54,705 nt of DNA from Candidatus Micrarchaeia archaeon (GCA_049966995.1 JBMFTN010000001.1:1-54705); one strand, 5' to 3'; shown: positions 18,708 to 39,549, numbered from the stretch's first letter. Translations and numbers: made by a program. Notes: generated by a model from the sequence alone, not told the origin.

Positions 18708-20309
18708 TTACTTTGCTTCTTTTTTTGCCTTCTTCTTTGAAATGGCCCTCTTATACCCATAGAATACCATTGCCGCTATTACTATTATTACAATTATTGA
18801 GTTGGCAAGCGAATTGTATTCCGAGCCTGCATTTGAGCTGACAGATGCAAAATAGTTTTCAGAAGCTGAAAACTCTTGGGTGAGTCCCCCATTTGATTGC
18901 CTCCACTGCTCGTATATTGCAACAGGATATGCGCCACTCTTTGCTTGCGTATCGATGCTTACATAGAAAGTTGCATTCACTTCTTGGCCGGGCGCTATGT
19001 TGTTTATGTACACATTTGGAGTAATTGGGGTTATGGGATACACTGTTTGCAATGAAAAAGAAACCTGCTGTGCATCTTCATTTCCAATGTTTTTAATATG
19101 GAATGTCAACGGAGCATATGAAGCTCCCGGGTTGAGGATGCCTTCTTCGCTTGTTATGTTGAAATCTGCTATGTTTTGCAATTGAAGTGGGATATATTTT
19201 AGGATTGCTGTTGCATTTTTATAGTTTGAACTTTCATAAGAGATTTTTATTGGAAGATAGTAAATGCTGCCATTAAGGTTTCGGTTTGCGCTAACGTAAA
19301 GCTGCTCGGGAACTGAAGCGCCAGGAGGTAGCTGACTTATAAAGAAGCTTGATATGCTACCAAGGCTCAAATCGCTTGTATTATAAAATGACACAGTTAC
19401 ATTTTTTGCCAAACCTTCTCCAGTATTTTCTATTTCAAACTGCAAGGTCTGATTGCCTCCTGCATAAAGCATTTGAGGGTATGCGCTAGATACAACTGCC
19501 ACAACATTTGGCTTTTCTATTGCTACATTTAGCAAGATGCTTTCGTTCCTTGTTATTATTGCACCAAATTGATTTGTATATGAAACAGTCATATTTATCT
19601 TGTAAGTGCCTCCGGAGATATTCTGACTCGGCAATAACATTACCGCAAATTGGTTTTCACCGCTTGCCGGCAAATTACCAATGTTGAATTTTGATGGACC
19701 TATGACCCTAAAAAAGCCAGTTGAATTAACAGCTATGCTAATATTTTGGGCTGGACCGCTGCCGCCATTGGTTGCCACTACATTAAGGTTAAAGTTTTGA
19801 CCAGGGGTTATCTCAACAGGGCTAGCGCTTAAGTCTATGTTTGCAGGGCCGTATACATAAAAGCTAATGGGCATCTCCGACTGAGCAGGTACATCAATGC
19901 TGCTAGTGCCTTCTGTCTGTGTAGTTTCGTAAGTCGCAAGAACATCTATAGTATATTCACCTGATGGGAGAGTAGACGGAATATGGAAAGTATATACAAA
20001 TCGATTGTAGCCTATACCCCCATATAAACCAGTACCTATCACATTTATTAGGTATGTGTATGCTGGCGAAACATTAATAAGTTGATTCTGCGAAACCAGT
20101 TGAAGATTCACGTTTTTCAGGTTTCCGGAATAACTATTATAAAGCTGGAAAGTTATGTTTATGTTGCTGCCCGAAACAACTGGCTGGGGGTATATGCCTA
20201 CGTTTACAAGAGATAGTGCGCCGTCTGCTGCATTTGCCACTGCTTGTGCCCCTGATATCTGTATTACTATTGATATAAGCAAGGTTATGGCCAATAATAT
20301 TTTTTTCAT
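18708..20309 (-). CDS. secreted CARDB/COG1361-like multi-beta-sandwich surface protein with C-terminal TM anchor
   Basis: N-terminal signal peptide (MKKILLAITLLISIVIQISGAQA), about five repeated ~100-aa Asn/Ser/Thr-rich modules, and a C-terminal hydrophobic helix plus KKKAKKEAK tail. It sits downstream of the ABC-2 transporter genes, a common archaeal arrangement. Confidence 0.6.
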   Translation of the reverse strand: MKKILLAITLLISIVIQISGAQAVANAADGALSLVNVGIYPQPVVSGSNINITFQLYNSYSGNLKNVNLQLVSQNQLINVSPAYTYLINVIGTGLYGGIGYNRFVYTFHIPSTLPSGEYTIDVLATYETTQTEGTSSIDVPAQSEMPISFYVYGPANIDLSASPVEITPGQNFNLNVVATNGGSGPAQNISIAVNSTGFFRVIGPSKFNIGNLPASGENQFAVMLLPSQNISGGTYKINMTVSYTNQFGAIITRNESILLNVAIEKPNVVAVVSSAYPQMLYAGGNQTLQFEIENTGEGLAKNVTVSFYNTSDLSLGSISSFFISQLPPGASVPEQLYVSANRNLNGSIYYLPIKISYESSNYKNATAILKYIPLQLQNIADFNITSEEGILNPGASYAPLTFHIKNIGNEDAQQVSFSLQTVYPITPITPNVYINNIAPGQEVNATFYVSIDTQAKSGAYPVAIYEQWRQSNGGLTQEFSASENYFASVSSNAGSEYNSLANSIIVIIVIAAMVFYGYKRAISKKKAKKEAK

Positions 20310-20318
20310 TTATATCAC

Positions 20319-21440
20319 TCATTGAAGAGTACTTTTAAGTGCCCTAAAGCTCAAAAATGTCATTAATACGAAAAAGGCAATCAATATACTGAAATCTATA
20401 ATTATAGCGTTAATAGGATAAAATCCATAAAGCATAACATCGCGTATACCGTTTGTTGCATATGTTAGTGGATCTATCTGACTGAGAGGATACAGCCATG
20501 ATGGTAATGAACTTGTTGGGAAAAACGCTCCGGAGATAAACCATAACGGGAGGATTACTGCATTTGTTAATATTGAGTATATTTCTATTTTTGGTATTCT
20601 TGTTGCAAGCATCATTGAAAGGCCTGAAAAACCCGCTGTAACCATGACTACTATAGCGTATATCCACAAAAGGCCAACGAAGTTTCCCGCAAATGTGGCC
20701 CCATCAAGTAAGCCCATCGCCAAAGCAATGTTTGCTGTTATAAATGATACTACAATAGTGTAAAACATTTTGCTCACAATTATAGTCCTCTTGTCTATCG
20801 GGGATATGAGGAATGCCTTAAGATTGCCAAGCTGCCTGTCAGTTATTATTGACATGCCACCCCCGAACATGGCCCCAAAAACCGAAACCATTATGATTAT
20901 GCCAGCAATAAGGAAGCTCTTATAGCTTATTCCTGTAGCAAGAGTTGGATCTGCAAAAACACTGCTAGATTGATGAACTGGAGCATTTTGAAGTAATGCC
21001 TCCTTTGTTATTGGCGCACTAAACTGGGATGCTATTGATGTTATTGTCTCTATTGAAGCACCCAGATTAACAAAATTGTTGTTATAGTATAAGTATACAC
21101 TTGGGTTACCTTTTGGAAATGAAGGCATTATCGTAACAACAACATATATTTTGTTGTCCTTAAGTAATTGGATTGCCGCTGCCTGATTTATGATACCTTC
21201 AATTATCAACGAATGCGTTGCTTGAAGAGCATCTATAAATTGCTGTGCAACAGGCGTTTCTGCATAATTAACTATTGCAATTGTGGTTGTTGTAGAAGAT
21301 GTACTTCCTAGATTCCCTAGGAATAAGATAAGGGTAAGAGGAAAGATTAGGGACCTTAGGATATTTGCCTTTATGTTGCTTCTGAATATGAGCATTTCCC
21401 TTTTGAATAAGGCAAAAGTATCATTCCAAAAATGTGCCAT
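20319..21440 (-). CDS. ABC-2 type transporter permease
   Basis: One N-terminal TM, a large extracytoplasmic loop and a C-terminal 5-TM bundle, typical of ABC-2/YadH permeases. ATG 21440 is preceded by GGGTGAT (Shine-Dalgarno-like). The track's TTG 21461 is the alternative start. Confidence 0.8.
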   Translation of the reverse strand: MAHFWNDTFALFKREMLIFRSNIKANILRSLIFPLTLILFLGNLGSTSSTTTTIAIVNYAETPVAQQFIDALQATHSLIIEGIINQAAAIQLLKDNKIYVVVTIMPSFPKGNPSVYLYYNNNFVNLGASIETITSIASQFSAPITKEALLQNAPVHQSSSVFADPTLATGISYKSFLIAGIIIMVSVFGAMFGGGMSIITDRQLGNLKAFLISPIDKRTIIVSKMFYTIVVSFITANIALAMGLLDGATFAGNFVGLLWIYAIVVMVTAGFSGLSMMLATRIPKIEIYSILTNAVILPLWFISGAFFPTSSLPSWLYPLSQIDPLTYATNGIRDVMLYGFYPINAIIIDFSILIAFFVLMTFLSFRALKSTLQ

Positions 21441-21450
21441 AAAATCACCC

Positions 21451-22446
21451 TTATCTGCCAAACCTTATGTTCCCCCTTGGATTTTTCATGCTGCCAACTT
21501 CATCCCTCATTGTATTCCCAGTAAGCTTTATAAACACGTCATCAAGGGTTGGCAAGTGCATGCTTATTGCGAGCACATTTATCTTTTCTTTCTCCAAGCG
21601 ATCTGCTATCTTCCTTATAGTAGCCAAAGGTTCTTTGCGTATATTTGCTGTGATCTTATCTACTTTTACTTCTGGATTGACACCACTAATCTCCTTTATT
21701 ATGTCAACCACCTTGTTTACTTGTTTTTCTTCTGCAATTACTTCCAAGATATTTTCTCCAACAATTCTCTTTATTTCTGAACTTGTGCCCATTGCAATTA
21801 TTTTGCCGTAGTCGATTATTGCGATTCTGTCACACAGGGCATCTGCCTCTTCCAAGTACTGGGTCGTTAATATTATGGTAATCCCCATTTTATGAAGATT
21901 CTTTATATGGTTCCACATTCCGGTCCTATTCTGTATGTCTAATCCTGTAGTTGGCTCATCCAGTATAAGCAACTTCGGTTCATGAATTAAGGTCTTTACT
22001 AATAGCAATCTCCTTTGCATTCCGCCTGAAAAGGTACCTGCTTTTTTGTCTGCAAATTCAGTCAACTGTGATTCTTTTAGCGCTTCTGAAACGCGTTTTT
22101 TTGTCTGCTCGCTGTTGAGATGATACAATTTTGCAAAAAGTTCAAGGTTCTGCCTTGCAGTTAAATCTGCCTCTACAACTGTCTCTTGCGTCATTAGGCC
22201 TATTTGCTGCTTTAATTCTTTCCCGTGCTTGGTTATATCCAAACCATTTATACTTATGCTTCCAGATGTAGGCTTTAAGAGCCCAAGCATCATGTTCAAA
22301 GTGGTGGTTTTACCTGCACCATTTGGCCCTAAGATCCCAAATATTTCGCCTTTTTTTACATTGAAACTTATGTTGTTAACAGCTGTAAAATTTCCAAACT
22401 TTTTTGAAACATTTTTTACTTCTACAAAATCCATAATATCACGCAT
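21451..22446 (-). CDS. ABC transporter ATP-binding protein (DrrA/CcmA-like)
   Basis: Walker A GPNGAGKTT, Q-loop, signature FSGGMQRR, Walker B LLILDEPTTGLD and the H-loop. Confidence 0.9.
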   Translation of the reverse strand: MRDIMDFVEVKNVSKKFGNFTAVNNISFNVKKGEIFGILGPNGAGKTTTLNMMLGLLKPTSGSISINGLDITKHGKELKQQIGLMTQETVVEADLTARQNLELFAKLYHLNSEQTKKRVSEALKESQLTEFADKKAGTFSGGMQRRLLLVKTLIHEPKLLILDEPTTGLDIQNRTGMWNHIKNLHKMGITIILTTQYLEEADALCDRIAIIDYGKIIAMGTSSEIKRIVGENILEVIAEEKQVNKVVDIIKEISGVNPEVKVDKITANIRKEPLATIRKIADRLEKEKINVLAISMHLPTLDDVFIKLTGNTMRDEVGSMKNPRGNIRFGR

Positions 22447-24720: not shown

Positions 24721-27366
24721 ATGAAACCAGAAAGCAATAGGGCACAGATTGCGCTTGAATTTCTTATAGTCTATTCCTTTGTATTGGTTGTATTTATAAT
24801 ATTGTTTGTTTTAATAGCCTCGCAAAGAGCAGTAACGCTTACACAGCAAGAATACGAGCAACTTCAGCTGCAAGTACAGAATATAGCAATGTATATAGAT
24901 AACGCATATGCGGCAGGCAATGGCTACTCTGCGACGATTCCTATTGTAGGTTCCATAGGATCATTGCCTTATAATATATCTATATCAAGCGCAGGCGTTG
25001 TGAAAGGTAGCATAACTATAGGCAAGCAGGTCATAAATGCTTATGGCTTTAGCAATGTGAGGAATATTATTGTTAATGGAACTGCAATCGCATATGATAA
25101 CAATATTGGCTTGTATCAAATACCGATATACAAGGGCTTTATTACGCTATCAAACTCAAAAGGCCAGGTGTTTATAGATAAAAAACCACCAGATATGCTA
25201 TCGCTTTTAAGAACGATCAATATTCAAGTGCCATCTGATGTCAATGTTGCTGAATTTAATGGAGTTAACAGCACGATCATTGGAAATTTAAGCAATTACT
25301 TTTGGGGTAATAATTCATTTACCATTTCTGCTTGGGTGTATATAACCCCAAAAACAAACGGCCCGCTGATTGGAATCGCAAACACCACAAGTGAAAACGG
25401 TTTAAATGCCACTCTTATAAGTGCCAACGGACTAATTGTATATGGCTTCTTGCCAGGGTTTGATACACTTTTACCATATAAGCTGCACACTTCTGGTTGG
25501 GATATGCTAACACTTACATACAATGCATTAAGCTATGGCAATGTGACTTTCTTTGTGAATGGCCAAGAAGCAGGATCTATGATTGGAAAGTACAATACTG
25601 TAGGAAGAACTGATTACTGGATAACGAATGCCACGGCGAAAAGACCTGCAGGAGTTAACCACTACTTTACTGGAATGCTAGCGAATGTGCAGGCATATTA
25701 TGAAAGTTTAGACCCTGAGCAGGTTATGCAGCTTTACGAAGAAGGGATTAATGGCGCACCGATATCAGATAAAATAGTATCGTGGTGGCCACTGAATGGA
25801 AATACTAGAGATTATAGCCCTAATAATCACAATGCAAAAAGCCTTAATTTAACCTATGGAGATGTTGAAGGCATTCAATTGCATGCTTTAAGCCAAGGGG
25901 GTGCAGCTTCTGCAGGTTTACCTGTTGGAATCGTATCCAGCATTGGCTCTGTAAACGGGAATAGCAGCTTTGAAGCGGAGAGGACAAATAAAACTGGATT
26001 TGCAATGCTGTTTATTACTGCAAACTCTTTGAATTTTGGAAAAGGCATCATGAATATAACCATGTATAACGGCAATTCCACCATGGCAGAAAATCTAACA
26101 GGATGGTGGCCACTGAATGGCAATGCTTATGACTACAGTGGCTACGGCAATAATGGCACTGCTTATGGCATAGATTGGGTCAGCCCGCCAGCAAATCAGT
26201 CAAACTTTGAATCTGCACTATTCGGCCAAAAAAACAGCGTTTTGGGGCGTTTAAATATCACATCTTCGGGCTTTACAATATCCGCATGGATTGATGGTAA
26301 TACTTTAAGCCTTAATAGGAATATTTTTGAACTTTTTGACAACAAAACGAAGAATCACAATTTGCTTGCAATAGGCATCAATGCGTCAGGATACGCATAC
26401 ATAAGGTGGAGCAATATATTTAACACTACGCAGTTCGAGTATTCTGGTGGCAGCATAAAACCAGGGGAATGGTACTTAATAACGGGAGTTTGGAATGGAA
26501 ACAACAACACACTTGAACTTTATCTAGATGGCGCTTTGGTAGCAAAAGGACCTGGCAATGGCACCACACAAGCGTATATGAACTTATATAATATTGGAGG
26601 GCCTTACTCCACAATAAACAGCTTTGACGGCTTGATTAGCAATGTACAGTTATATAATAGAGCATTGTCGCAGAATCAAGTTTATGGTTTGTATAATGCA
26701 GGAATCGAATCTTTGCCTATTATGAATGAATTAATAGGATGGTGGCCTTTGCTTGGTACGCCAAATGACGCCATAGCTAACAGCACTATTATATTTGCTA
26801 ATTTAACATACCAAAACGTGGCACTAATACAAAGTGGCATTTCAAGAAGCAGAATTGCATACTTTAATGGCAGCGCTTATGTTAATATATCAAGTTCAAG
26901 CAGCATAACACCTACAAATACTATAAGTATGATGGGCTGGATTTACTTAACCAAACCAGTATCAGCTATAGCACAAAAGGAGGGAGCATATGGCATGGAT
27001 GTTGGCAATGATGGCATATCTCCAGGCACATTCAACGCTTATATCGGGGATAGCAAGGCAACATGCCAAAATTATCCATATAACCTATCAATAGACAAAT
27101 GGTATTTTGTTGGCTTCACGTATAATGGCACAAACATAGACACATATGTAAATGGGCAGCCTTACTGTTCTGAATATACGAGCTACAGCATTCCTTCTGG
27201 GAAAACACCACTTGCATTCGGGGGCCCTGGTGACACCGATGGCTATGTCAATGGCTACCTTTCTGATATGCAAATTTACAACACAGCACTTTCAGCTGAA
27301 GAGGTGCAAGCATTGTATGAGAATGGCCTGCCACCTATCAAGAGCATAAATATTACAATGGGGTAA
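24721..27366 (+). CDS. pilin-like protein (class III signal peptide) fused to three LamG/ConA-like lectin modules
   Basis: True start MKPESNRA|QIALEFLIVYSFVLVVFIILFVLIA is an archaeal prepilin motif, preceded by GGGAG. Three LamG C-terminal signatures are present: LANVQAYYESLDPEQVMQLYEEGI, ISNVQLYNRALSQNQVYGLYNAGI and LSDMQIYNTALSAEEVQALYENGL. Two of the three modules open with WWPL(N/L)G (WWPLNGNAYDYSGYGNNGT, WWPLLGTPND); the first module does not, and a further WWPLNGNTRD opening after it is not followed by a recognisable module. I counted at least about 30 N-x-S/T sequons by eye. Confidence 0.75.
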   Translation: MKPESNRAQIALEFLIVYSFVLVVFIILFVLIASQRAVTLTQQEYEQLQLQVQNIAMYIDNAYAAGNGYSATIPIVGSIGSLPYNISISSAGVVKGSITIGKQVINAYGFSNVRNIIVNGTAIAYDNNIGLYQIPIYKGFITLSNSKGQVFIDKKPPDMLSLLRTINIQVPSDVNVAEFNGVNSTIIGNLSNYFWGNNSFTISAWVYITPKTNGPLIGIANTTSENGLNATLISANGLIVYGFLPGFDTLLPYKLHTSGWDMLTLTYNALSYGNVTFFVNGQEAGSMIGKYNTVGRTDYWITNATAKRPAGVNHYFTGMLANVQAYYESLDPEQVMQLYEEGINGAPISDKIVSWWPLNGNTRDYSPNNHNAKSLNLTYGDVEGIQLHALSQGGAASAGLPVGIVSSIGSVNGNSSFEAERTNKTGFAMLFITANSLNFGKGIMNITMYNGNSTMAENLTGWWPLNGNAYDYSGYGNNGTAYGIDWVSPPANQSNFESALFGQKNSVLGRLNITSSGFTISAWIDGNTLSLNRNIFELFDNKTKNHNLLAIGINASGYAYIRWSNIFNTTQFEYSGGSIKPGEWYLITGVWNGNNNTLELYLDGALVAKGPGNGTTQAYMNLYNIGGPYSTINSFDGLISNVQLYNRALSQNQVYGLYNAGIESLPIMNELIGWWPLLGTPNDAIANSTIIFANLTYQNVALIQSGISRSRIAYFNGSAYVNISSSSSITPTNTISMMGWIYLTKPVSAIAQKEGAYGMDVGNDGISPGTFNAYIGDSKATCQNYPYNLSIDKWYFVGFTYNGTNIDTYVNGQPYCSEYTSYSIPSGKTPLAFGGPGDTDGYVNGYLSDMQIYNTALSAEEVQALYENGLPPIKSINITMG
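26104..26166 (+). repeat. 63-nt near-identical segment shared with 31939-32001 (LamG module start)
   Basis: TGGTGGCCACTGAATGG(C/T)AA(T/C)GCTTATGACTACAG(T/C)GGCTACGGCAATAATGGCACTGCTTAT has only three differences, all synonymous. The flanks diverge. Confidence 0.9.
26737..26768 (+). repeat. 32-nt perfect repeat shared with 29942-29973 (LamG module junction)
   Basis: GGATGGTGGCCTTTGCTTGGTACGCCAAATGA is identical in both genes and encodes GWWPLLGTPND. Confidence 0.9.
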
Positions 27367-27371
27367 CATAA

Positions 27372-27908
27372 ATGAAAGCACAATTTTGGAGTTTTGACGT
27401 GATTTTCGCTATTGTAATATTTGGTGTAGCAATAACAATAATTGCATTTACCTGGTACCAAATTAGCACTCAGCTTTCCCTATCTTATGGCAATGGCGCC
27501 GCCATAATGGAGCTGCAGGCTGATACACTAGCAAAAAGCCTGCTTTCTGAAGGTTATCCTTCAGACTGGGAAAGCCTGATTAATACCACCAACAGCAGCA
27601 CTTGGAAATATGTCAGCATTGGCATATTAAATAGAACGGGCATATCAATCAAGAAGCTTTATGCATTCATGTCTATGTCAAATTCAAACTATCAGGCAAC
27701 GAAGCAGGCTTTGGGAATAGGTTTTGACTATTTTATAGTAATAGAAAGCAAGCTTTACAATAACGGCATTAATATTACAATAGGCAGAAACCCTGCCAAG
27801 AATAATGCCCTTACTATATATGTTGAAAAACGCAGTAGCTTTATCAATGGGGTACCCGTAGAAATTAATATTTACCTTTGGACCCAAACACCTTTTGGTG
27901 TTGAATAG
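27372..27908 (+). CDS. small pilin-like protein (class III signal peptide)
   Basis: MKA|QFWSFDVIFAIVIFGVAITIIAF N-terminus followed by a globular domain of about 150 aa. It starts 5 nt after the preceding gene. Confidence 0.6.
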   Translation: MKAQFWSFDVIFAIVIFGVAITIIAFTWYQISTQLSLSYGNGAAIMELQADTLAKSLLSEGYPSDWESLINTTNSSTWKYVSIGILNRTGISIKKLYAFMSMSNSNYQATKQALGIGFDYFIVIESKLYNNGINITIGRNPAKNNALTIYVEKRSSFINGVPVEINIYLWTQTPFGVE

Positions 27909-27919
27909 AGTATGATGCA

Positions 27920-30148
27920 ATGAATAATCTAAAAGGCTTTATATTCACATTGGATGCTTTGTTTGCACTGATAATCGCAGCTGCTGGAATATCCATACTC
28001 CTTTATATACATCCCCTCACAAACGGAGGGTATTCTATACCTGTATCCGAGGCTTCAAGCATGCTTAACGGCTTACTCAACACAAATTTGCAATCTGTAT
28101 CATTACCGGGCTTATCAAATAATATTACATCGAACAACGCTTCTTTATTTGGATGGCCGCAATTTGGCAATTACGAAAATGAAACCGCATCAACAGCTTA
28201 TGGTCCAGAGACAACTTCAACACTTTTTTCCTTTAACACAGGCCGTTATCCCATATCTGATGTGCTTGCAGATAAAGGATTGGTAATAGTTACATATGGC
28301 GACAGCATTGTGGCGCTAAATGCAACAGATGGCAGAAAAATTTACAGTATAAATACTGGTTCTAACATAACTGGAATGCCCGCAACTTACATGAATGAAA
28401 TAATCTATGCGAATAGCACAGGTTTCTTGTGTGGCGCAAACATTAAAAATGGAACTATTGTATGGACAAGCAAGATTAGCGTACCGGTAGATACGCCAAT
28501 ACTCGTAGAAAATGGTTATGCCACTTTTGGCAGCTCTTATTTATTTTATCTTGTAAATCCTTTAAATGGTAGTGTAGTTTCCACAAACACGGTGAACCAG
28601 AAATTGACTGCAATGCCTCCAGTGTATGACAATGGAGAGTATATTGTTTCTGCTAGCGGCCCGCTGCCAACAACAAATTTTGTTTACGGGTTTGCACTTG
28701 AAGGCACGACACTGGTAAAGTTATGGAGCACTGAGTTGTCCACTCCGCATACAACTATTCCAATCATTGCAAATGGCAGGATTATTCTTGGCAGTGGCAG
28801 CAACCTGTATGACATAACAACTTCTGGCATCAAGAACTCTTCTGCTTCTTTAGACCTTCAGGTAAGCGGAATAGCATATAGCAATGGCTTTATATATGCT
28901 GAGACTAAGGATGAGATTTACTCTGTGCCATTAAATGCTTCTGGAGAACTCGGAATGCCTTTGCCAATACGCAACACACCGATCCAATCCATAAATGAAA
29001 CTCCAACGTTTGCTGATGGCAATATATATGTACTGATAAACGGTAGCATATTCCAATCATACAATATATCAAATAGGAACTTAATATTTAGCGTGAAGTT
29101 GCCTAGCGAATATGGATTGAATTCCCAAATATATAATATGGGTGATATTGTCATTGCATATGGCAATGCATACGTTTCAAGCGGGGATATGCTTTATGCT
29201 TTTGGCGGTTACATCACAGACCGTACAGCGCCGATACTTTATGCAATAGCAGAAATGTATCTTAACAAGCAAGGCGCTGAGGCAGACATTATATTGAATA
29301 GCACTGCTATTTCTCAAGATAGCGCTATGTTTATAAATGGTACATATGCGCCTTCTATTTCAATGGCATATTTTGATGGCAATTCAGCGATATATGAACT
29401 TGGTATACCGATAATAGCATATAATTATACAATAAGTGCGTGGTTCAAGCTGAATAATTCAACTTCTTCATCAGGGCCAAATGGAGGCGAATATCCCATA
29501 TTAACATTATACAATGCTACAAATAACGGCGGAATTGGAGGGGGCCAAACGATCAGCCTTGGTAATGTGTGGGCAGGCGGCAAATATGGAGAATTAAGCT
29601 TTAATGAAACAAACTCTAAATTCTGCAGCACAGGCTCAGGAACTGTAATACCTAACAAATGGTACAATGCAATTTTGTCTGTTTATGGGTATAAGAATTA
29701 TATTAATGTTATAATTTATCTAAATGGCAAGGAGGCGGTTTCATGCCATCTTACTTTAAGCCCTGCAAGCATTGAATATCCTGCATTGGCAATTGGAAGC
29801 AATCCTATTGGCAGGGAAACATTTGGACAAGGCTTTATATCGAATATACAACTTTACAATTCAACACTGCAGCCAAATCAAGCGAGCGCCCTTTATGCTT
29901 TAGGAATATTTTCCATACCGCCAGGCACTAACAAGCTGGTCGGATGGTGGCCTTTGCTTGGTACGCCAAATGATTATAGCCACCATGGCATTGTGGCAAT
30001 ACAAGATAATGTAAGCTATGAAGAAGGCAATGTTACGCCTGAAACGCTTTTGAATGCTTACGAAGTAAGCAAGGAAAGTGTGCCTCTAAGTATAGAGGTG
30101 AATGGTACTTATCATATATACAATGTAAGTGTTGTCATATGGCATTGA
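27920..30148 (+). CDS. pilin-like protein fused to PQQ-like beta-propeller and LamG module
   Basis: MNNLKG|FIFTLDALFALIIAAAGISILLY N-terminus. Repeated strand motifs such as GDSIVALNATDGRKIYS, GANIKNGTIVWTS, YLVNPLNGSVVST and GDMLYAFGG are typical of PQQ/BamB-like propellers. A C-terminal LamG signature (ISNIQLYNSTLQPNQASALYALGI) is followed by WWPLLGTPND. Confidence 0.7.
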   Translation: MNNLKGFIFTLDALFALIIAAAGISILLYIHPLTNGGYSIPVSEASSMLNGLLNTNLQSVSLPGLSNNITSNNASLFGWPQFGNYENETASTAYGPETTSTLFSFNTGRYPISDVLADKGLVIVTYGDSIVALNATDGRKIYSINTGSNITGMPATYMNEIIYANSTGFLCGANIKNGTIVWTSKISVPVDTPILVENGYATFGSSYLFYLVNPLNGSVVSTNTVNQKLTAMPPVYDNGEYIVSASGPLPTTNFVYGFALEGTTLVKLWSTELSTPHTTIPIIANGRIILGSGSNLYDITTSGIKNSSASLDLQVSGIAYSNGFIYAETKDEIYSVPLNASGELGMPLPIRNTPIQSINETPTFADGNIYVLINGSIFQSYNISNRNLIFSVKLPSEYGLNSQIYNMGDIVIAYGNAYVSSGDMLYAFGGYITDRTAPILYAIAEMYLNKQGAEADIILNSTAISQDSAMFINGTYAPSISMAYFDGNSAIYELGIPIIAYNYTISAWFKLNNSTSSSGPNGGEYPILTLYNATNNGGIGGGQTISLGNVWAGGKYGELSFNETNSKFCSTGSGTVIPNKWYNAILSVYGYKNYINVIIYLNGKEAVSCHLTLSPASIEYPALAIGSNPIGRETFGQGFISNIQLYNSTLQPNQASALYALGIFSIPPGTNKLVGWWPLLGTPNDYSHHGIVAIQDNVSYEEGNVTPETLLNAYEVSKESVPLSIEVNGTYHIYNVSVVIWH
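29942..29973 (+). repeat. partner copy of the 32-nt repeat at 26737-26768
   Basis: Direct comparison in the sequence. Confidence 0.9.
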
Positions 30149-32331
30149 AAAAAACAAAGGGGATATTACTCACGCTTGCCGTGATTGTATTGCTAGTATT
30201 GATTATAGGCGAGCTGATAATGTATGTAGTTCTTAATATAAGCTATAGCACCATAAGTTCTCAAACAGGATCCCTTTCTAGCACAGGGTATTTTATACAA
30301 GGCATAAAGAGTAGCGCGTATGCTTTTACATTGAGTAGTTTACACAGTGCACTTGCTGCTTTAATTAAATATGAGGCTACGCCTAGTTTGAGGCACTATC
30401 ATTTTATAACAAATGCACAGCAAGCCATAGAATCACTCATGTATAATGGCACCATATATGGAACAAATATGACTAGTTACATGAATAGTACAATGCTCGA
30501 ATTTGCATATATGGCTGAAGAACAGGCAAAAAACGAGTATCTTAATCTTACCATAGAAAATTCAAGCATTTATGTTTTCCAAACTGGGCCTTTCACGCTC
30601 GCTGCTCGATATACTGCATTAGGTATAGTTAATTCAAGCTATGGTAAATTTGTTTACCCTATAAGCGCAACTGCAAACATGTCTTTGAACGGGATGCCTG
30701 ATCTATATAGTATTGAAAGTGATAATCCATCAGTAATACATGCTTCTGATACATATCCGCAGGCATTTTTAGTTGGAGATGTTTTTGCAAGTTCTGCCAA
30801 TATATCAAATGAATCCTTTGTATACGGGACCGTGATAAAAATAAATGGAACAACATGCGCAAATGTACCACTCCAATTCAGGAACAATTACTTTATACTT
30901 GTAATGCAAAATGCCAAAAATGTAGATAAAGGCATGTGCGGTATGGGCGGGCTTATTACCTCGCAGATAAATAACACAAATTTTGGCAAACCATACCTTG
31001 TTTATCCTTCATCCGAATTTATATCCGTTTTTAACGAGATCCAAAATGGCACAAAATTGCTAATTTCCGGCAAAGGCAAATCATTGCTAAATATAACACA
31101 GATAAAAGAAGCTATACAGAATAATTATTATTATGCAACTCCTTATGCTCCTTCATACCTTGGATGGGCAAGCGGATCTCTTAATAGATCACCATTTGGC
31201 ATATTCTCATTTAGCGTGCTGCATAGGTACGTAGCACAGCTAAACACCAATGGTACAACAAAGCCAAAAGCATTTTTGAACATAAAAGGTGCTGTGCCTA
31301 GGTCATATCCAGAATTTTCTTATTCTGCTTGGTTCTATCCAACAAGCGCTGAGAATTATTCAAGAATAATAACTACAAGCAGCGGAAGCAGTGGTACTAT
31401 TGAGCTAGCCCTCTTAAATGCAAATCAGACAATACATACAACATCCGGTAATACAAGTACAGTAGGCCCTGTACCTGGAATAAGGATTATGGCTGTAAGT
31501 GGTGGCACAAGTAGCAGTAGCTCTACAACATCTACAACTACCACTATACCACCTCAGACTGTTTCAAGCGCAAATACTGTTTTAAAAACAGAGTATATAT
31601 ACGTAGACGGATTTGGAATAGATGGCTGGATTAATACCACTGCAAGAGTACCTATGAATAAATGGAATTTTATAGCTGCCACATACAATGGTAGTACGTA
31701 CACTGTTTACTTAGACAATATGACAATATGGAAAAAAGCTAATGTATCTCTTTCAGGCGCTTCAATGGGCAACATGCAGATAGGAGGCACTACTTCATCA
31801 TATAATATTGGCAACCAATTTTTTGGGGATATCGCCAATGTTCAATTTTATAATACATCATTGTCAAAGCAGCAAGAGTTTGAATTATTTATGGATGGCA
31901 TATCTGGCATACCGATATCCAACAGTTCTCTGGTAGGGTGGTGGCCACTGAATGGTAACGCTTATGACTACAGCGGCTACGGCAATAATGGCACTGCTTA
32001 TAATGTTACTTTTGGAGGCCTGAATGATTATGGTGGAGACGCACTCCTCTGGGGAACATTTTATTCGATACCACGTGAAGTTGAAGGGATTAACTGCAGG
32101 AACTTTACGAGCTGTGGTACATCACAAGCACAGAGTTTATATGTGGGCAACCTTACACTGTGGTCTAATGTGTCTGCCGTATTGAATGAGACCACAACGT
32201 TCAACTTGCAAAACGCAATTGTTTCAACAAGCTTCGATTATATAACGACAACTACTTCCTCTACAACATCCACAACGTCAACTACAACCACCACTACAAC
32301 TACAACAATAGCTAGTGGGGCGCCAAGTTAA
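30139..32331 (+). CDS. pilin-like/N-terminally anchored protein with LamG module and poly-Thr tracts
   Basis: MALKKTKG|ILLTLAVIVLLVLIIGELIM N-terminus. LamG signature IANVQFYNTSLSKQQEFELFMDGI is followed by WWPLNGNAYDYSGYGNNGTAY. An internal S/T tract (SSSSSTTSTTTT) and a C-terminal TTTTSSTTSTTSTTTTTTTTT tail are present. It overlaps the upstream gene by 10 nt (ATGGCATTGA). Confidence 0.65.
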   Translation: MALKKTKGILLTLAVIVLLVLIIGELIMYVVLNISYSTISSQTGSLSSTGYFIQGIKSSAYAFTLSSLHSALAALIKYEATPSLRHYHFITNAQQAIESLMYNGTIYGTNMTSYMNSTMLEFAYMAEEQAKNEYLNLTIENSSIYVFQTGPFTLAARYTALGIVNSSYGKFVYPISATANMSLNGMPDLYSIESDNPSVIHASDTYPQAFLVGDVFASSANISNESFVYGTVIKINGTTCANVPLQFRNNYFILVMQNAKNVDKGMCGMGGLITSQINNTNFGKPYLVYPSSEFISVFNEIQNGTKLLISGKGKSLLNITQIKEAIQNNYYYATPYAPSYLGWASGSLNRSPFGIFSFSVLHRYVAQLNTNGTTKPKAFLNIKGAVPRSYPEFSYSAWFYPTSAENYSRIITTSSGSSGTIELALLNANQTIHTTSGNTSTVGPVPGIRIMAVSGGTSSSSSTTSTTTTIPPQTVSSANTVLKTEYIYVDGFGIDGWINTTARVPMNKWNFIAATYNGSTYTVYLDNMTIWKKANVSLSGASMGNMQIGGTTSSYNIGNQFFGDIANVQFYNTSLSKQQEFELFMDGISGIPISNSSLVGWWPLNGNAYDYSGYGNNGTAYNVTFGGLNDYGGDALLWGTFYSIPREVEGINCRNFTSCGTSQAQSLYVGNLTLWSNVSAVLNETTTFNLQNAIVSTSFDYITTTTSSTTSTTSTTTTTTTTTIASGAPS
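31939..32001 (+). repeat. partner copy of the 63-nt segment at 26104-26166
   Basis: Direct comparison of the two stretches in the sequence. Confidence 0.9.
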
Positions 32332-32522: not shown

Positions 32523-33515
32523 TTATATACCTGTGCCTATGCTGACAAATAACGACCCTATAACAGCTTCCATTACAAGAAAGATCACTATTCCAATAAT
32601 TATGAAAACAGGCAGGTATTTTATACCTTTTACAACTGAACCGGAGGAGATAGCACTCATTATGAGCGCAGAGAATCCTGTAATTATTATTATTGCAATT
32701 ATTGAAAAGTAGTAATATGTTGTAGGTGTTATCTTAGGGGGGCTAGGCCTTAGAAAAGAGAGGCCTGTTGTTGGCAATCCGCCAGGATTGCTTGAAAGGA
32801 TCCCCTTCCATACTGTATCAGTCACTACAATCATCTGGCTGGTCAACCCATAAAGGACAGGAGCTGCAACAAGCCCGGCAAAAGCTATGAATATGCTATA
32901 CATAAACAATTGACCGGCAACTTCCTTTTGTATGAGCTGCTGGTTTCTCATGTCCCTTGAAATCTGCTCTATAAGATCAGCCATTGCGCCACCAAACCTC
33001 AATGCTTCTATCATCATTCTTATTGCATGGGCAAGCTGAAAAGAACGGTAGCGCATTGCAAGCTTTTTAAGTGCATCTTCCAGGTTTTCTCCACCGAAAA
33101 CGCTTCTTGTCATCGCCTTAACATCGTCACTTAGAGGTACAAATTCTGGCCTTGCTGCAAGCAGAAGCGCTCTATCAAGGGCTATTCCACTTCTTAGATT
33201 TGCTGAGGTGATCTGCAGGAAATCAGGCAATTCTTGCTCCATCTTTGTCTTTCTTTTATCAATTAAGTATTCCAAAAACATGTATAATAGAACGACATAC
33301 AAAGCAGCCATTCCAAGGCCGGAAAAGAAGGATATTACTATTCCGTATTTGAGGTGATACATAACAAAAGATATAACTATAAGGATTGCAAAAGCGCCTA
33401 TTATTGTAATGCGCAAAAATTTCTCAACGCTTGTCTTTATACCTGCAAGATCTATCTCATTTGAAACTAGCAGTGCCACAGGTCTTGATACAAGCCTTTC
33501 AAATCTTATTTTCAT
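32523..33515 (-). CDS. type IV pilus/Tad-like platform membrane protein (single T2SSF domain, TadC/EpdK-like)
   Basis: T2SSF-domain pattern LPDFLQITSANLRSGIALDRAL...LEDALKKLA...MIEALRFGG, flanked by TM helices. It is the last gene of the ATPase operon. Confidence 0.8.
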   Translation of the reverse strand: MKIRFERLVSRPVALLVSNEIDLAGIKTSVEKFLRITIIGAFAILIVISFVMYHLKYGIVISFFSGLGMAALYVVLLYMFLEYLIDKRKTKMEQELPDFLQITSANLRSGIALDRALLLAARPEFVPLSDDVKAMTRSVFGGENLEDALKKLAMRYRSFQLAHAIRMMIEALRFGGAMADLIEQISRDMRNQQLIQKEVAGQLFMYSIFIAFAGLVAAPVLYGLTSQMIVVTDTVWKGILSSNPGGLPTTGLSFLRPSPPKITPTTYYYFSIIAIIIITGFSALIMSAISSGSVVKGIKYLPVFIIIGIVIFLVMEAVIGSLFVSIGTGI

Positions 33516-33519
33516 GCTA

Positions 33520-34620
33520 TCACATACTAAATACAGGCCTAGAACTCCTTATCATGGCCAGGAAGATTATCTGCAGAATCAACAGGAATACAAGAACAAA
33601 TGCTAGTAAAACTGTCGTCACGCTTATTATTGATATGAATGTTGTTAGTATTGTAACCACAGCTATACCCATGCTGGGCAGTATGACTCCAAAAAGCATG
33701 TAGAACATCGCAATTGCATTAAGTCTCTGGCCGTATCTTCTAAGTTCTATTATGCGCTCCTGGGATATCTGGTCAATCATGCTCTGCAAAGCAGAGACCA
33801 CGTCCGCGCCGGCTTTTATGCTTACTGAAGCTTGCAGCATTATCCTCCTGAATGAAACACTCTTTGTTTCTGCCACTGCATCATCAATTGCTTTTTCTAA
33901 AGGCTCTCCAAGCTGAACCCTGCTCACTATGCGTGCAAACTCCTTGCTTGCTTCGCCGTAACCTGTGCTGACAGAGACTATTGCATCGAAGAGAGGCATT
34001 CCAGAACGCAATGATATAATCATATCTCTAGCTGCAAACAGTATATCGCGCTCAACATTTCTAGAATCTGCAATGCCCCTTCTTGTCGGATAATTTAAGA
34101 ACATATTGAATAAGATCTTAAAGATTACAAAACCCAGAAGTATGGCAAACAAAGCGCTTGCTGGAATTGACATTTTAAGGTCTAGAAAAAGTGCAAATAT
34201 GATAACAGCCAATAGGATACTTGAGGACAACGCCGCGTAAAACATCCTTTTTACAAATTCATAAATAGTCCCTTTTATATGATGTTCTGACACCGCAAGG
34301 TCCAACCCTTTGCGCTTTGCACCTACTCCCTCTAAATATAGCCTAAATCTGCTAGGCTTACTACCCTTTTGCGGCACATTTTGTTTTTGATACTGGCCAG
34401 CAGTTTGGGCATTTGGAATTGCTTCTTGGTACTGCGGTGCATTTGATGGACCAATTGAAGTTTCATTATACTGCATTGTACTTTGCTGGACGGTACTTTG
34501 GCTTGAAGGTATATTTGGGGCTTTTGGCTTCCTGAATGAGAAAAGGCCAGGCTTGGGCTCTAGCTCTATTATTTCATTTCCTACTTTTATTGTACGCTTT
34601 TTCTTGCCGAACAACATCAA
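33520..34620 (-). CDS. type IV pilus/Tad-like platform membrane protein (single T2SSF domain, TadB/EpdJ-like) with Q-rich N-terminal extension
   Basis: DMIISLRSGMPLFDAIVSV...LGEPLEKAIDD...ASVSIKAGAD is a T2SSF domain. The Gln/Pro-rich cytoplasmic N-terminus of about 90 aa (residues ~35-90 low-complexity) has no recognised domain. Confidence 0.8.
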   Translation of the reverse strand: MMLFGKKKRTIKVGNEIIELEPKPGLFSFRKPKAPNIPSSQSTVQQSTMQYNETSIGPSNAPQYQEAIPNAQTAGQYQKQNVPQKGSKPSRFRLYLEGVGAKRKGLDLAVSEHHIKGTIYEFVKRMFYAALSSSILLAVIIFALFLDLKMSIPASALFAILLGFVIFKILFNMFLNYPTRRGIADSRNVERDILFAARDMIISLRSGMPLFDAIVSVSTGYGEASKEFARIVSRVQLGEPLEKAIDDAVAETKSVSFRRIMLQASVSIKAGADVVSALQSMIDQISQERIIELRRYGQRLNAIAMFYMLFGVILPSMGIAVVTILTTFISIISVTTVLLAFVLVFLLILQIIFLAMIRSSRPVFSM

Positions 34621-35330
34621 TTCACCTTATGCAAAAGAGAGAGCGCTTCGCTGAGTCTCTGGTCCCTTAAATCAAATAAGGACTTCTCAAGCTCGCTCTT
34701 AGGCACTAGCTTGTTCTGTTTTCTTAGATCTGAAAGCATTTGGTCAAGCCCATAAAGCTCTTCTTCTACTATTATGATATGCTCGCTATCAAATACGTTT
34801 TCCTTTAGGCCTTCTATTATGCGCTCAAGCTCTGCAATCTGATCTGCAAGAGTGAGGTTTGGAAGTACTAGTTCGCTTATGTTGACGCGCTTTATCTTAT
34901 AGCTTGGCTTTCTTGCAGCAGCACCAAGTTTCTTTATCAGGGATCCGAGTTCTAGCTTTGCCTTTTTGTTTTCTATTTGAGGCTGTACTGCTTGTGGCTG
35001 TGCTGCAGGCACATTCTCTGGCGGGTTAACATTCTGCACAGGCACTTCTACGGTCTGTGCTGCTCCAACTTTCTGCTGTGAATACGATATCTGCTCCAAT
35101 CCAGAGGTTATCAAGTGCGGCGGCTTCTGTTTTTCTCTTATTAGGTACTCACCCTTTCCCTTACTCTCTATACTGTTGATAATTTGCAAAAGGCTTTGAT
35201 ATGGCGTACTTGGAGCGCTTGTGGAATTTAGTATTGGGCTAATATCGACATAGCTTACGTCTGGAACTTTGACACCATTTTCTATGTCTTTGATCACATC
35301 CAGCATACTTTTGTAATCCATATTAAACAC
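34617..35330 (-). CDS. uncharacterised soluble pilus-operon protein (P/Q-rich linker, C-terminal helical domain)
   Basis: 237-aa ORF translationally coupled (4-nt overlap) between the ATPase and TadB-like genes. No TM and no motif I can name. Confidence 0.5.
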   Translation of the reverse strand: MFNMDYKSMLDVIKDIENGVKVPDVSYVDISPILNSTSAPSTPYQSLLQIINSIESKGKGEYLIREKQKPPHLITSGLEQISYSQQKVGAAQTVEVPVQNVNPPENVPAAQPQAVQPQIENKKAKLELGSLIKKLGAAARKPSYKIKRVNISELVLPNLTLADQIAELERIIEGLKENVFDSEHIIIVEEELYGLDQMLSDLRKQNKLVPKSELEKSLFDLRDQRLSEALSLLHKVN

Positions 35331-35338
35331 TCAATCCA

Positions 35339-36877
35339 TCAGCTGAAAAGGCTTTTGTCATATTTAACATCATCATTGACAATATCTAATATTCTTTGCT
35401 TATGTTTATAATAATTTGCAATTACAAGCCCTGCATCATTTACCTCTGTTACATTGTTCTTTACCATCCAGTTTAGTATTTTGCTCTTTTCGTTTATTTC
35501 ATCATTTATTTCGCTTCTTGTAAGGCCCCCATATAGGTTTAAGGTCTCCATGAGCCTGCTCATCTCGTGTATATGAGAGAAGGTGTCGCTGCGCATGTCC
35601 CACTTGTATAGTATGTCAACATCACCATCCCGGAGTACTTCCCCGAATTCAAGCACGCGCCTTATCCCTTTACTTCGATGCCTAAAAAGCACAACAACTG
35701 CACCGAGGGCATTAAGCATTATCTTTGGTATATTAATAGGAGGATTTGTCATTCTCACTATAGTGTCTTGTGCATTGTCTGCATGGACTGTACCATATAC
35801 CGCATGACCTGTGTGTATGGCCTCGAATAAAGTCTCGGCATCCTTCTGCGACCTTATTTCTCCGATGAGCACTATGTCTGGTCTTTGCCTAAGCGCATTC
35901 ACCATCAGATCATACAATGTTACTTCACCTTTGCCTTCTGGGTTTGCCTGACGGCTAAGCATCGGCACCCACTGCAAAAATGAGGGCAGGGTCAGCTCTC
36001 TAGTTTCTTCTATTGATATTACCCTCCTGCTTGCGGGGAAAAATATGCTTGAAGCATTAAGGAAACTTGTCTTCCCGCTAGCAGTGCCTCCGGAAAACAG
36101 CATGCTTATTTCGTATTGTATTGAAAGCCATACAAGCGCTGCAAGCTCAGGGTCGATGGAGTGATTTTTTATTAGGGCAGGCATTGTCCATGGATTCTTA
36201 GAAAATTTTCTTATTGTAATTGTATTTCCTGATTGCGAAACAGGAAACAGCGTGGAGTTTGACCTAGAACCGTCTGGAAGCTCTGCATCCATCAAAGGGG
36301 ACAGGTTGTTTATTTCCCTGCCTATTCTGCGCCCTATCTGCTCTGACTGCTCGTATATTTCCTCTTCGCTAGAAGGTTTTATATTGGTCTTGCACCAGCC
36401 GTATATTTTATGGAAAACATATATTGGGCTTTTTGAGCCGTTTACGGTAATTTCTTCGAGGTTCTCATCTGCTATCAATCCTTCAAGATCTCCTAGGCCA
36501 AGCATCATGTTCAGTATGTATGATATAAGTATCCTTTTTGTTTCTCCGCTTGTGTTAGGTAAATACTTGTCTATAAGGGTATTGCTTGCTGCTATATACT
36601 TGTTGTTTAGCTCTTCCAAGTACTCCTTGTCTTCTATCCTGGTTGGATCTGCTGGAACCATTGACATAAGCTCTCTTCTGAATGAAAGAAGCAGGAGCTT
36701 TGTTGCTTCGCCTATGCCCGGGTATGTCATGTTGTACAAAGGCACAAAATCAGTGCCGCGAGTAAGCAGCACGTGTACCCGCATACCGTGCGCATCTAAG
36801 TTGTATTCTGCGAGAACTTCCTCTTTTTCATCATCAATTTTTTTTGCTGGTTCAGGCATCTTATCAGTCATTTGCAA
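35339..36877 (-). CDS. type IV pilus assembly ATPase (FlaI/ArlI/PilB/VirB11 superfamily)
   Basis: Walker A GGTASGKTS, Asp box, Walker B PDIVLIGEIR and His box TGHAVYGTVHA. Size and N-terminal domain are as in archaeal FlaI/EpdL-type ATPases. Confidence 0.9.
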   Translation of the reverse strand: MQMTDKMPEPAKKIDDEKEEVLAEYNLDAHGMRVHVLLTRGTDFVPLYNMTYPGIGEATKLLLLSFRRELMSMVPADPTRIEDKEYLEELNNKYIAASNTLIDKYLPNTSGETKRILISYILNMMLGLGDLEGLIADENLEEITVNGSKSPIYVFHKIYGWCKTNIKPSSEEEIYEQSEQIGRRIGREINNLSPLMDAELPDGSRSNSTLFPVSQSGNTITIRKFSKNPWTMPALIKNHSIDPELAALVWLSIQYEISMLFSGGTASGKTSFLNASSIFFPASRRVISIEETRELTLPSFLQWVPMLSRQANPEGKGEVTLYDLMVNALRQRPDIVLIGEIRSQKDAETLFEAIHTGHAVYGTVHADNAQDTIVRMTNPPINIPKIMLNALGAVVVLFRHRSKGIRRVLEFGEVLRDGDVDILYKWDMRSDTFSHIHEMSRLMETLNLYGGLTRSEINDEINEKSKILNWMVKNNVTEVNDAGLVIANYYKHKQRILDIVNDDVKYDKSLFS

Positions 36878-39108: not shown

Positions 39109-39549
39109 GTGTTATTAATTAGGTGTTTAACTGTGGTAAAAAATATAAACAACCACGTGATTGTTTGCGGCTTTGGCATTCTAGGGCGTAAAATAGTGGA
39201 TGTGCTGGCTGAACACGGAGTCAAGTTTTTGATTGTTGATATTGACCCTAAAGTTATGAGTATCATTAAAGAATATGGCTATGAGTATGTAGAAGGAGAC
39301 GCCACGCGATCTAAAGTGCTAAGAGAAGCAAACATTGAGAATGCGAAGGCTATAGCAATCGCACTTGATGATGATGCAAAAAACCTTTTTATTGTGTTAA
39401 CGGCAAGGGATCTCAATAAGGATATATTTATAGCCGCCCGCGCAAATGACGAATTTGTGCGTGGCAAGCTCATCGAAGCCGGAGCGGATTATGTAGTTAT
39501 GCCGCAAAAGGCAGCAAGCAGAGAGATTGTAGATGAGCTCTTAAAGTGA
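39109..39549 (+). CDS. soluble TrkA-N/KTN (RCK) NAD-binding domain protein
   Basis: Rossmann motif VIVCGFGILGRKIV, then DID....EGDAT and AIAIALDDD. The start is uncertain (GTG 39109 or GTG 39133). Confidence 0.8.
   Translation: MLLIRCLTVVKNINNHVIVCGFGILGRKIVDVLAEHGVKFLIVDIDPKVMSIIKEYGYEYVEGDATRSKVLREANIENAKAIAIALDDDAKNLFIVLTARDLNKDIFIAARANDEFVRGKLIEAGADYVVMPQKAASREIVDELLK

Follow-up and report, generated by a model that had tools for sequence, protein, structure and literature searches.

Four prepilin-like genes, three of them with large LamG-bearing modules, face a type IV pilus assembly operon in Micrarchaeota

Do prepilin-like proteins of 700 to 900 amino acids belong to a pilus and, if so, which part of it could they form? 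The question is raised by four adjacent genes, here called g1 to g4, on the plus strand of a 54,705-nucleotide (nt) stretch of DNA from Candidatus Micrarchaeia archaeon (GCA_049966995.1, JBMFTN010000001.1:1-54705). This whole stretch is referred to below as the window, and the four-gene cassette lies at positions 24721 to 32331. A first-pass annotation, made from the sequence alone, had taken the products for pilus-displayed or pilus-tip lectin-type adhesins of a small-genome archaeon. The cassette as observed is a real feature, and the adhesin interpretation as a whole was partly supported. We think it fairly likely that the products of g1 to g4 are the set of non-major, minor-pilin-like subunits in a filament resembling a type IV pilus, which is assembled by an operon that converges on the cassette. 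The cassette probably forms the sticky part of that pilus.

Layout and N-termini of the cassette

The four genes were co-directional and separated by only 5, 11, and -10 nt, the last value being an overlap: g1 (24721-27366; 881 amino acids, counted from ATG), g2 (27372-27908; 178 amino acids), g3 (27920-30148; 742 amino acids), and g4 (30139-32331; 730 amino acids). The calls drew on open reading frames (ORFs) and Pfam for the three large, prepilin-like products, supplemented by an AlphaFold2 (AF2) model for g3, and on ORFs, homologues, and an AF2 model for g2, a small pilin-like core subunit. ORFs, translations, and spacings agreed exactly with those of the first-pass annotation. The longest ORF of g1 begins upstream, with TTG at 24601; since an AGGGAGA motif lies 5 to 6 nt before the ATG at 24721, and since orthologues begin their basic leader there, the ATG was taken as the start. 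T-runs follow the stop codon of g4 on the 3' side. Scans of sigma-70 promoters and intrinsic terminators gave counts at shuffle level, with bacterial models that are uninformative for an archaeon. An exact look-up of g2 in the contig index returned no match. Named homologue sources were nearly all Candidatus Micrarchaeota/Micrarchaeia (DPANN), with a few carrying Marsarchaeota or other labels, which agrees with the small-genome archaeon proposed earlier.

The three large proteins were rich in N-x-S/T sequons, as had been noted before. We counted 30 in g1, 25 in g3, and 31 in g4 (3.4 to 4.3 per 100 amino acids), an approximately 2-fold enrichment over composition-preserving shuffles (12 to 14; standard deviation, ∼3). 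For comparison, those cytoplasmic proteins and membrane proteins of the pilus machinery that were counted in the window had 0 to 1.6 sequons per 100 amino acids, and its other predicted surface proteins had 2.6 to 2.8.

All four products begin with a short basic leader that ends in [KR]-[G/A/S] and is followed by a hydrophobic segment of about 20 or more residues, the archaeal class III signal pattern ascribed to them at first sight. The N-termini read NRA↓QIALEFL (g1), MKA↓QFWSFD (g2), LKG↓FIFTLDAL (g3), and TKG↓ILLTL (g4), where the arrow marks the putative cut site (RA↓Q, KA↓Q, KG↓F, and KG↓I), and more than 20 hydrophobic residues follow it in each case. When every possible start was considered in all window ORFs and all six frames, this leader pattern occurred at gene starts in g1 to g4 only; a looser pattern added one further gene (50398-51840), which is described below. 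Among orthologues from dozens of genomes, each cassette position had its own conserved N-terminal type. Among 65 orthologues of g1 the type was [KR][AGS]↓QIALEF; Q was near-invariant at +1, position +5 was E or, rarely, D, and variants such as QISLEF and QLSLEF occurred. The other positions showed K[AG]↓QFWSFD (g2), KG↓FIFTLDA (g3), and KG↓ILLTL (g4), the last of these with no acidic residue at +5/+6. By eye, the g1 N-terminus, with Q at +1 and E at +5, resembles the DUF361 motif QXSXEXXXL, which has Q at +1 and is known from substrates of EppA, a pilin-specific peptidase (PMC2910488).

Assembly operon and modular build of the subunits

On the opposite strand, 191 nt from g4 and convergent with the cassette, lies an operon for type IV pilus assembly (32523-38143), of which the first-pass annotation made no mention. 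Nearest to g4 are two half-genes for a TadC/FlaJ-like platform, the second (32523-33515; T2SSF, E 5.6e-15) and the first (33520-34620; T2SSF, E 3.3e-17, with a weak ArlJ/FlaJ match). They are followed, against the direction of transcription, by the gene of a conserved 237-amino-acid protein (34617-35330), which was found in the same position between ATPase and TadC in at least 40 loci and had no Pfam or NCBIfam match. Next comes a secretion ATPase of the FlaI/VirB11 family (35339-36877; T2SSE, E 4.4e-32), whose best NCBIfam match was FlaI, at 263 bits and thus under the cut-off of 550. The operon is headed by the gene of a 421-amino-acid coiled-coil protein (36878-38143) that is conserved in position and gave weak coiled-coil matches only; it has a possible N-terminal winged-helix-like part. 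The 421- and 237-amino-acid products may be lineage-specific pilus assembly factors. A Peptidase_M50 gene (38194-38907) stands next after the operon.

Loci were fetched around g3 and g2 relatives, and the window proteins were mapped onto 84 Micrarchaeota loci. The nine-gene layout, in which g1-g2-g3-g4 face TadC-TadC-unknown-ATPase-coiled coil, recurred in most of these loci, wherever the contig was long enough, and was present in the complete genome of Candidatus Micrarchaeum sp. A_DKE (L041). Median identity to the window proteins was 67% for the ATPase, 54 to 61% for the TadC genes (61% for the second half-gene), 52% for g2, and 30 to 32% for g1, g3, and g4; divergence of the modular proteins is roughly twice as rapid as that of g2 and the machinery. 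The linkage to a pilus was thus borne out by a T2SSE ATPase and two T2SSF genes that the cassette faces, in a synteny conserved across the phylum.

Some loci carried further small genes. In one subclade (L032, L036, L039, L052, L053, L055, L058, L079, L081, and L083), an extra gene of 150 to 168 amino acids was located just upstream of g1; its N-terminus is of the K[AG]↓QSSFELL type, with QSSFELLITLSFG after the cut. A variant locus (L066, 6287-7097) contained three QxSLE pilin-like genes of 70 to 122 amino acids. These genes, which are lacking in the window, are candidate major or additional pilins.

The best conserved cassette gene is g2. A protein search yielded 111 homologue clusters, and relatives are encoded by at least 133 Micrarchaeota genomes at species level, among them that of the cultured strain A_DKE. 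A profile search against 1.84 billion representatives returned 1130 relatives at E ≤ 0.001, and the distant relatives bearing names also came from Micrarchaeota, including Candidatus Gugararchaeum. No family was found in a Pfam scan. The AF2 model, built from 45 homologues (predicted local distance difference test score [pLDDT], 87), comprises a helix at residues 8 to 57, short helices, and a 4-stranded sheet, so that its predicted topology is that of a pilin-like "lollipop."

In g1, three Laminin_G_3 stretches were detected (whole-protein Pfam E 4.8e-53), at amino acids 195 to 335 (nt 25303-25725), 509 to 654 (nt 26245-26682), and 716 to 863 (nt 26866-27309); a PDB sequence search with g1 gave no informative relatives. 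The stretches are preceded by a pilin-sized N-module of about amino acids 1 to 150. Hidden Markov models (HMMs) of the N-modules were searched against small relatives together with 1773 decoy ORFs. That of g1 matched stand-alone proteins of 142 and 155 amino acids over their whole length at 60 and 65 bits (E 1e-17 to 1e-19); because the first ∼150 residues align over these entire proteins, g1 appears to be a pilin-sized protein that acquired large C-terminal modules. The g3 N-terminal HMM matched a 202-amino-acid stand-alone protein at 37 bits, a match limited to the N-terminal ∼80 residues. Such stand-alone counterparts of the g1 and g3 N-modules, of 142 to 202 amino acids, occur in other Micrarchaeota. 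In Candidatus Gugararchaeum the same four N-terminal types were found in the same order on small proteins of 147, 178, 170, and 294 amino acids, followed by T2SSE, two T2SSF genes, and a 157-amino-acid PF04021 pilin. Two further lineages had g1-type proteins of 142 and 155 amino acids and g3-type proteins of 198 and 202 amino acids. At the level of sequence, these matches amount to a demonstration that g1, and g3 by its N-terminus, correspond to pilin-sized proteins with grafted modules.

Downstream of its N-terminal helix, g3 contains an 8-blade BamB/PQQ-like beta-propeller (about amino acids 100 to 430; nt 28217-29209) and one Laminin_G_3 domain (amino acids 500 to 654; nt 29417-29881). Pfam assigned PQQ_2 (40.7 bits; cut-off, 27.6) and Beta-prop_ACSF4 to the propeller. 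In the AF2 model (pLDDT, 67), the N-terminal helix and a poorly predicted linker were followed by a confident 8-blade propeller and a LamG jelly roll, and the C-terminus formed a conserved hairpin; full-length homologues numbered 18, at 25 to 36% identity. The propeller superposed on BamB (Foldseek target-normalized TM-score up to 0.79; E ∼1e-18), and the top 50 Foldseek matches comprised BamB, YxaL, tetrathionate hydrolase, and designed propellers. The PQQ-like propeller claimed for g3 therefore holds as a fold, BamB-like and 8-bladed, but not as a PQQ enzyme. A BamB function was rejected as well, since scores lay far under the cut-offs and archaea, to our knowledge, have no outer membrane. 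Homology to PilY1 found no support in Pfam (no PilC/PilY1 match) or among the top 50 Foldseek matches.

These domains bear on one alternative, according to which the large products are secreted or surface enzymes whose ConA-like/glucanase-type and PQQ-like domains are catalytic (glycan hydrolysis, dehydrogenase) and feed a reduced symbiont, the machinery being their secretion route. Weak matches to trans-sialidase, sialidase lectin-like domains, and PQQ dehydrogenase models point in this direction. All enzyme-family matches, however, fell far under their cut-offs (19.9 versus 480 bits for PQQ dehydrogenase), the best structural matches of the propeller were non-enzymatic BamB scaffolds, and the sialidase-type matches concerned, by their Pfam names, carbohydrate-binding rather than catalytic modules. 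We consider an enzymatic role highly improbable.

The N-terminal ∼350 amino acids of g4 form a separate domain, which equals a 458-amino-acid stand-alone protein of another locus (L086; 106 bits). Within it, a DUF2341-like part spans about amino acids 100 to 346 (nt 30436-31176). DUF2341 (PF10102) was detected on 5 of 31 orthologous N-domains, with a best E of 5.6e-9 and no match for g4 of the window itself, and the N-domain HMM matched the window's DUF2341 protein (50398-51840) at 23 bits. A profile search of the PDB with this domain returned no informative relatives. Further downstream lies a Laminin_G_3 domain (E 1.2e-9; about amino acids 395 to 579, nt 31321-31875), which is split by a poly-Ser/Thr insert (amino acids 457 to 469; nt 31507-31545). 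A poly-Thr tract is found near the C-terminus (amino acids 703 to 723; nt 32245-32307), so that the earlier description of g4 as LamG plus poly-Thr tracts was correct. The LamG assignments made at first sight, like that of the propeller, held in HMM and structure searches.

The fifth gene with a class III-type N-terminus, found by the looser scan on the plus strand at 50398-51840 (the start may be 50413), encodes a protein that begins MKNAQMKA↓QNAIEFL, with QNAIEFLSTYAF after the cut. It has 10 Cys and a DUF2341 domain (PF10102) at 32.7 bits (cut-off, 23.4). Its N-terminal type was present directly after g4 in four loci (L010, L025, L030, and L040), and the product is probably a further substrate of the same pilus system.

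The motif GWWPLNGNxxDYSGxGNNG precedes each LamG module, and the DNA at these junctions is repeated between cassette genes. The copies at 26100-26166 in g1 and 31935-32001 in g4 were 94% identical (the g1 copy encodes GWWPLNGNAYDYSGYGNNGTAY), and those at 26737-26768 in g1 and 29942-29973 in g3 were 100% identical (the g1 copy encodes GWWPLLGTPN). The LamG modules themselves were far more divergent than the junction DNA. Exact junction repeats of 20 to 89 nt, within or between cassette genes, were present in 30 of 64 complete cassettes. Gene conversion or an exchange of modules would fit these repeats; strong constraint on amino acids and codons may account for the same data.

Relation to known pilus and display systems

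The first-pass annotation had left open whether this architecture is already catalogued. In outline it is (PMC4858521, PMC5498576): the cassette is the Micrarchaeota version of a known archaeal pilus locus type, already listed for Candidatus Mancarchaeum acidiphilum Mia14. The present analysis adds the conserved order of the four N-terminal types, the correspondence of g1, and of g3 by its N-terminus, to pilin-sized proteins with grafts, the recognition of the g4 N-domain as DUF2341-like, a probable fifth substrate, and the junction repeats.

Makarova, Koonin, and Albers (2016) described clade 1 of type IV pili (T4P) with an ATPase, two TadC genes, and at least 5 FlaFind-positive minor pilins; large DUF2341 proteins were proposed as tip adhesins, and stand-alone major pilins are ∼70 amino acids long (PMC4858521). 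COG5306 surface proteins and "secreted components" of arCOG03821/arCOG07613 were tabled as FlaFind-positive members of this clade (PMC4858521). The Epd pilus of Methanococcus maripaludis is its studied example. [quoted passage not shown] Our locus shares with clade 1 a single ATPase with a platform split into two TadC genes, several class III-type non-major subunits, DUF361-type N-termini in which Q occupies +1 and E occupies +5, a major pilin that is usually a stand-alone gene, and a large class III-type DUF2341 protein, the product of 50398-51840, with PF10102 above the cut-off. The split platform is not exclusive to clade/system 1, since subsystems 4A and 4B of some DPANN reportedly have it as well (bioRxiv 10.64898/2026.04.22.720090). 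The locus differs from clade 1 in that its bulky modules are mainly Laminin_G_3 domains and a BamB-like propeller, only g4 and the 50398 gene being DUF2341-like, and in its fixed, ordered four-gene cassette with three members of 700 to 900 amino acids. An EppA peptidase and a FleN/MinD ATPase, which are "often found" in clade 1 and not obligatory, were both absent from the window's sizeable ORFs as judged by Pfam. As far as sequence features go, the split platform, the DUF2341 proteins, and the N-terminal motif speak for placing the locus in clade/system 1.

The closest counterpart was found in the same phylum. Golyshina et al. (2017) assigned MIA14_0170 to MIA14_0177 of Mia14 to clade 1, in the order ATPase, unnamed, TadC, TadC, two unnamed genes, a "secreted T4P component" (MIA14_0176), and one more (PMC5498576). 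The window matches this order gene for gene, orthology being taken from gene order only. LamG genes are expanded in Mia14 and partly "linked to type IV pili loci" (PMC5498576); in the accessible portions of that paper's text and tables, its LamG proteins are not called prepilin-like or modular pilins.

Bacterial modular pilins offer a second point of comparison. In Streptococcus sanguinis, PilB (vWA) and PilC (ConA-like lectin) were predicted or shown to be exposed at the pilus tip (Raynaud et al. 2021, PMC8179133; Shahin et al. 2023, PMC9934059); the survey of such pilins covers bacteria only, the word "archaea" being absent from its text (PMC8179133). Like these proteins, g1, and g3 by its N-terminus, would combine a pilin-sized N-module with grafted modules that are not T4P specific, ConA-like/LamG domains among them. 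Unlike them, the cassette comes from another domain of life, has archaeal-type N-terminal motifs, and carries up to three LamG domains per subunit, with three modular subunits in one cassette. Pfam gave no match to the bacterial N-methylation-type family (IPR012902) on the g1 to g4 N-termini, even at E up to 10. The working principle of modular pilins does apply to the cassette; membership itself fails on the defining N-terminal motif.

As in the bacterial tip complex FimU-PilVWX/PilY1 and in GspH-I-J-K of type II secretion, four pilin-like subunits, which in those systems are of low abundance, are encoded together. GspK lacks the conserved acidic residue, as does g4. At the tip, FimU-PilVWX/PilY1 has a beta-propeller adhesin (PilY1, PMC8179133). 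Unlike PilY1, which is a separate non-pilin protein, the propeller of g3 is fused to a pilin-type helix, and the two showed no match in sequence (Pfam; IPR008707) or in fold among the top 50 Foldseek matches. Tat-fimbriae were considered and rejected: TafC (NF052521) matched at 57.8 and 19.8 bits against a cut-off of 410, and only through the LamG-like C-terminal part of the model. No twin-arginine motif was seen in the g1 to g4 N-termini.

Several other genes of the window encode predicted surface proteins. A giant protein of 2009 amino acids (42670-48699, minus strand) carries a Sec-type signal and, at its C-terminus, a transmembrane anchor with a basic tail. It contains 54 sequons and 20 Cys and matches DUF2341 weakly (22.3 bits; cut-off, 23.4); it is reminiscent of the large "S-layer-like" DUF2341 proteins that Makarova et al. 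tied to clade 1 pili. Its gene is followed by that of a very basic 514-amino-acid protein without family (41081-42625). A sequon-rich surface protein of 533 amino acids (18708-20309, minus strand) has NPCBM_assoc and CARDB domains and lies beside an ABC-2 transporter pair with a PadR regulator (20319-22446, minus strand); CARDB surface proteins were also highlighted in Mia14 by Golyshina et al. (PMC5498576). Three tandem TrkA_N (RCK) genes, two with N-terminal membrane segments, are located at 39109-41049 (plus strand). A 107-nt tRNA at 52202-52308 (plus strand) was called by Rfam and not reported by ARAGORN, for which reason it probably contains an intron; a 138-amino-acid DDE transposase fragment (52354-52770, minus strand) adjoins it. 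On a distant Micrarchaeota contig (L088), the genes of EF-2 and RNA polymerase A'' (7384-11139 and 13002-15358) both carry intein and LAGLIDADG insertions.

Candidate role in attachment

The pilus reading that we favor can be set out as a series of steps. The convergent operon, with its FlaI-like ATPase, split TadC platform, and two conserved accessory proteins, would assemble the filament. Each subunit would be synthesized behind a short basic leader, with a hydrophobic helix at its N-terminus: g2 as a plain conserved pilin-like protein, g1 as a pilin-sized module with LamG grafts, g3 as a helix with propeller and LamG directly after it, and g4 as a DUF2341-like domain to which LamG and a Thr-rich stalk are joined. 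The leaders would be removed by a peptidase of the FlaK/PibD/EppA type encoded elsewhere, and the four subunits may then form an initiation or tip complex held together by their N-terminal helices. Because the grafted modules measure 500 to 700 amino acids, a position at the tip rather than in the filament body would be expected. Beneath this complex a small major pilin, also encoded elsewhere, would polymerize. The heavily N-glycosylated LamG and propeller modules would finally bind surface glycans or glycoproteins, the likely target being a wall-less Thermoplasmatales host. N-glycosylation of surface proteins occurs in Micrarchaeota, and the Thermoplasmatales archaeon co-cultured with A_DKE lacks an S-layer (bioRxiv 10.1101/2021.04.28.441871). 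The faster evolution of g1, g3, and g4, together with near-identical junction DNA that would permit module exchange, fits selection on binding specificity.

Several findings weigh against this reading. Position -1, for which the archaeal prepilin peptidase consensus is G, A, or S, was Leu, Met, Val, or Ile in ∼23% of g1 and g2 orthologues, which are therefore off-consensus. PF04021 (Class_IIIsignal/DUF361, QXSXEXXXL) matched g1 only weakly (amino acids 6 to 27; E 3.7, 8.1 bits; cut-off, 23.7), and Pfam detected no significant class III or pilin family on the isolated g1 to g4 N-termini; the class III assignment is carried by the pattern scan and the orthologues. The structural check proposed by the first-pass annotation was divided. 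The topology of g2 is pilin-like, but Foldseek of the g2 model against the PDB gave no significant match (best E 6e-3, TM 0.23, ribosomal proteins), and a g2 profile search of PDB sequences gave no pilin and no informative relative, so that the case for a pilin fold in g2 is one of topology. In the g3 model, no globular pilin domain was seen between helix and propeller. Pfam scans of sizeable ORFs revealed no Peptidase_A24 gene in the window, and Pfam and leader-pattern scans revealed no gene of a small major pilin there; Mia14 was reported with one FlaK-like peptidase (PMC5498576). Placement of the ATPase in clade 1 (arCOG01819) was taken over from Golyshina et al., who made it for the syntenic Mia14 locus (PMC5498576). 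As to sugar binding, Laminin_G_3 is a broad family. Finally, the co-culture papers on Micrarchaeota A_DKE and ARM-1 make no mention of pili, pilins, LamG, or adhesins.

The off-consensus residues at -1, the lack of a significant PF04021 match, the missing PDB pilin match for g2, and the absence of a nearby peptidase gene would all suit plain signal-anchored surface glycoproteins, that is, adhesins or envelope parts that keep their N-terminal helices uncleaved (or have Sec signals) and are independent of the pilus machinery. Such proteins would not need a near-invariant Q at +1 and a conserved acidic residue at +5/+6, and their genes would hardly account for an ATPase/TadC synteny that is kept in dozens of species-level genomes despite 30% identity of the large proteins. 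Pilin-sized homologues of the g1 N-module lie in T4P loci that include a PF04021 pilin, and the equivalent Mia14 gene belongs to an arCOG of FlaFind-positive T4P components (PMC5498576, PMC4858521). Signal-anchored glycoproteins therefore strike us as a distinctly unlikely explanation.

The missing major pilin and the size of the subunits raise another alternative, a display similar to a bindosome or pseudopilus. The products would then form a short cell-proximal stalk or a surface array with lectin-type modules at or just beyond the S-layer, which would capture glycans or nutrients or hold a docked host membrane. The bindosome (Bas system) of Sulfolobus displays sugar-binding proteins, and class III signal peptides on proteins of sugar-binding type are common to it and our locus; their presence on non-pilin binding proteins is established (PMC3047682; PMC2910488). 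A major pilin was lacking in the window and in most close-clade loci, three of the four subunits appear too bulky for a filament body, and the absence of pili from the A_DKE and ARM-1 culture papers speaks for this alternative as well. The ATPase has a weak match to BasE; it scored, however, only 117 bits (NF053672; cut-off, 1000) against the 263 bits for FlaI, and the substrates, unlike those of the bindosome, are not ABC-transporter binding proteins. Moreover, small QxSxE pilins of 70 to 160 amino acids were found in or near related loci (L066, L085, and the subclade with the extra gene), and Mia14 has a stand-alone class III pilin, MIA14_0118 (PMC5498576). We hold a display of this kind to be unlikely.

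The pilus-tip reading can be carried further, to an extension that we doubt and put forward tentatively. In this version, g1 to g4 would be a phylum-wide four-subunit "grappling head" of the Micrarchaeota pilus, to which three subunits would each add lectin or propeller modules that recognize the glycan coat of the wall-less Thermoplasmatales host, and the near-identical LamG junction DNA (GWWPLNGNxxDYSG) would be a recombination site at which modules are swapped within and between the three genes. If this were true, the cassette would be the primary host-recognition device of Micrarchaeota, and module swapping would diversify their host range.

Little is known about the means by which DPANN archaea locate their hosts and stay attached to them. 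The cassette pairs a conserved core subunit with fast-evolving lectin-type modules and ties them to pilus machinery. It is not a new kind of system; it represents an archaeal counterpart of the bacterial "modular pilin" strategy and offers a concrete candidate for an attachment apparatus, including in cultured Micrarchaeota.

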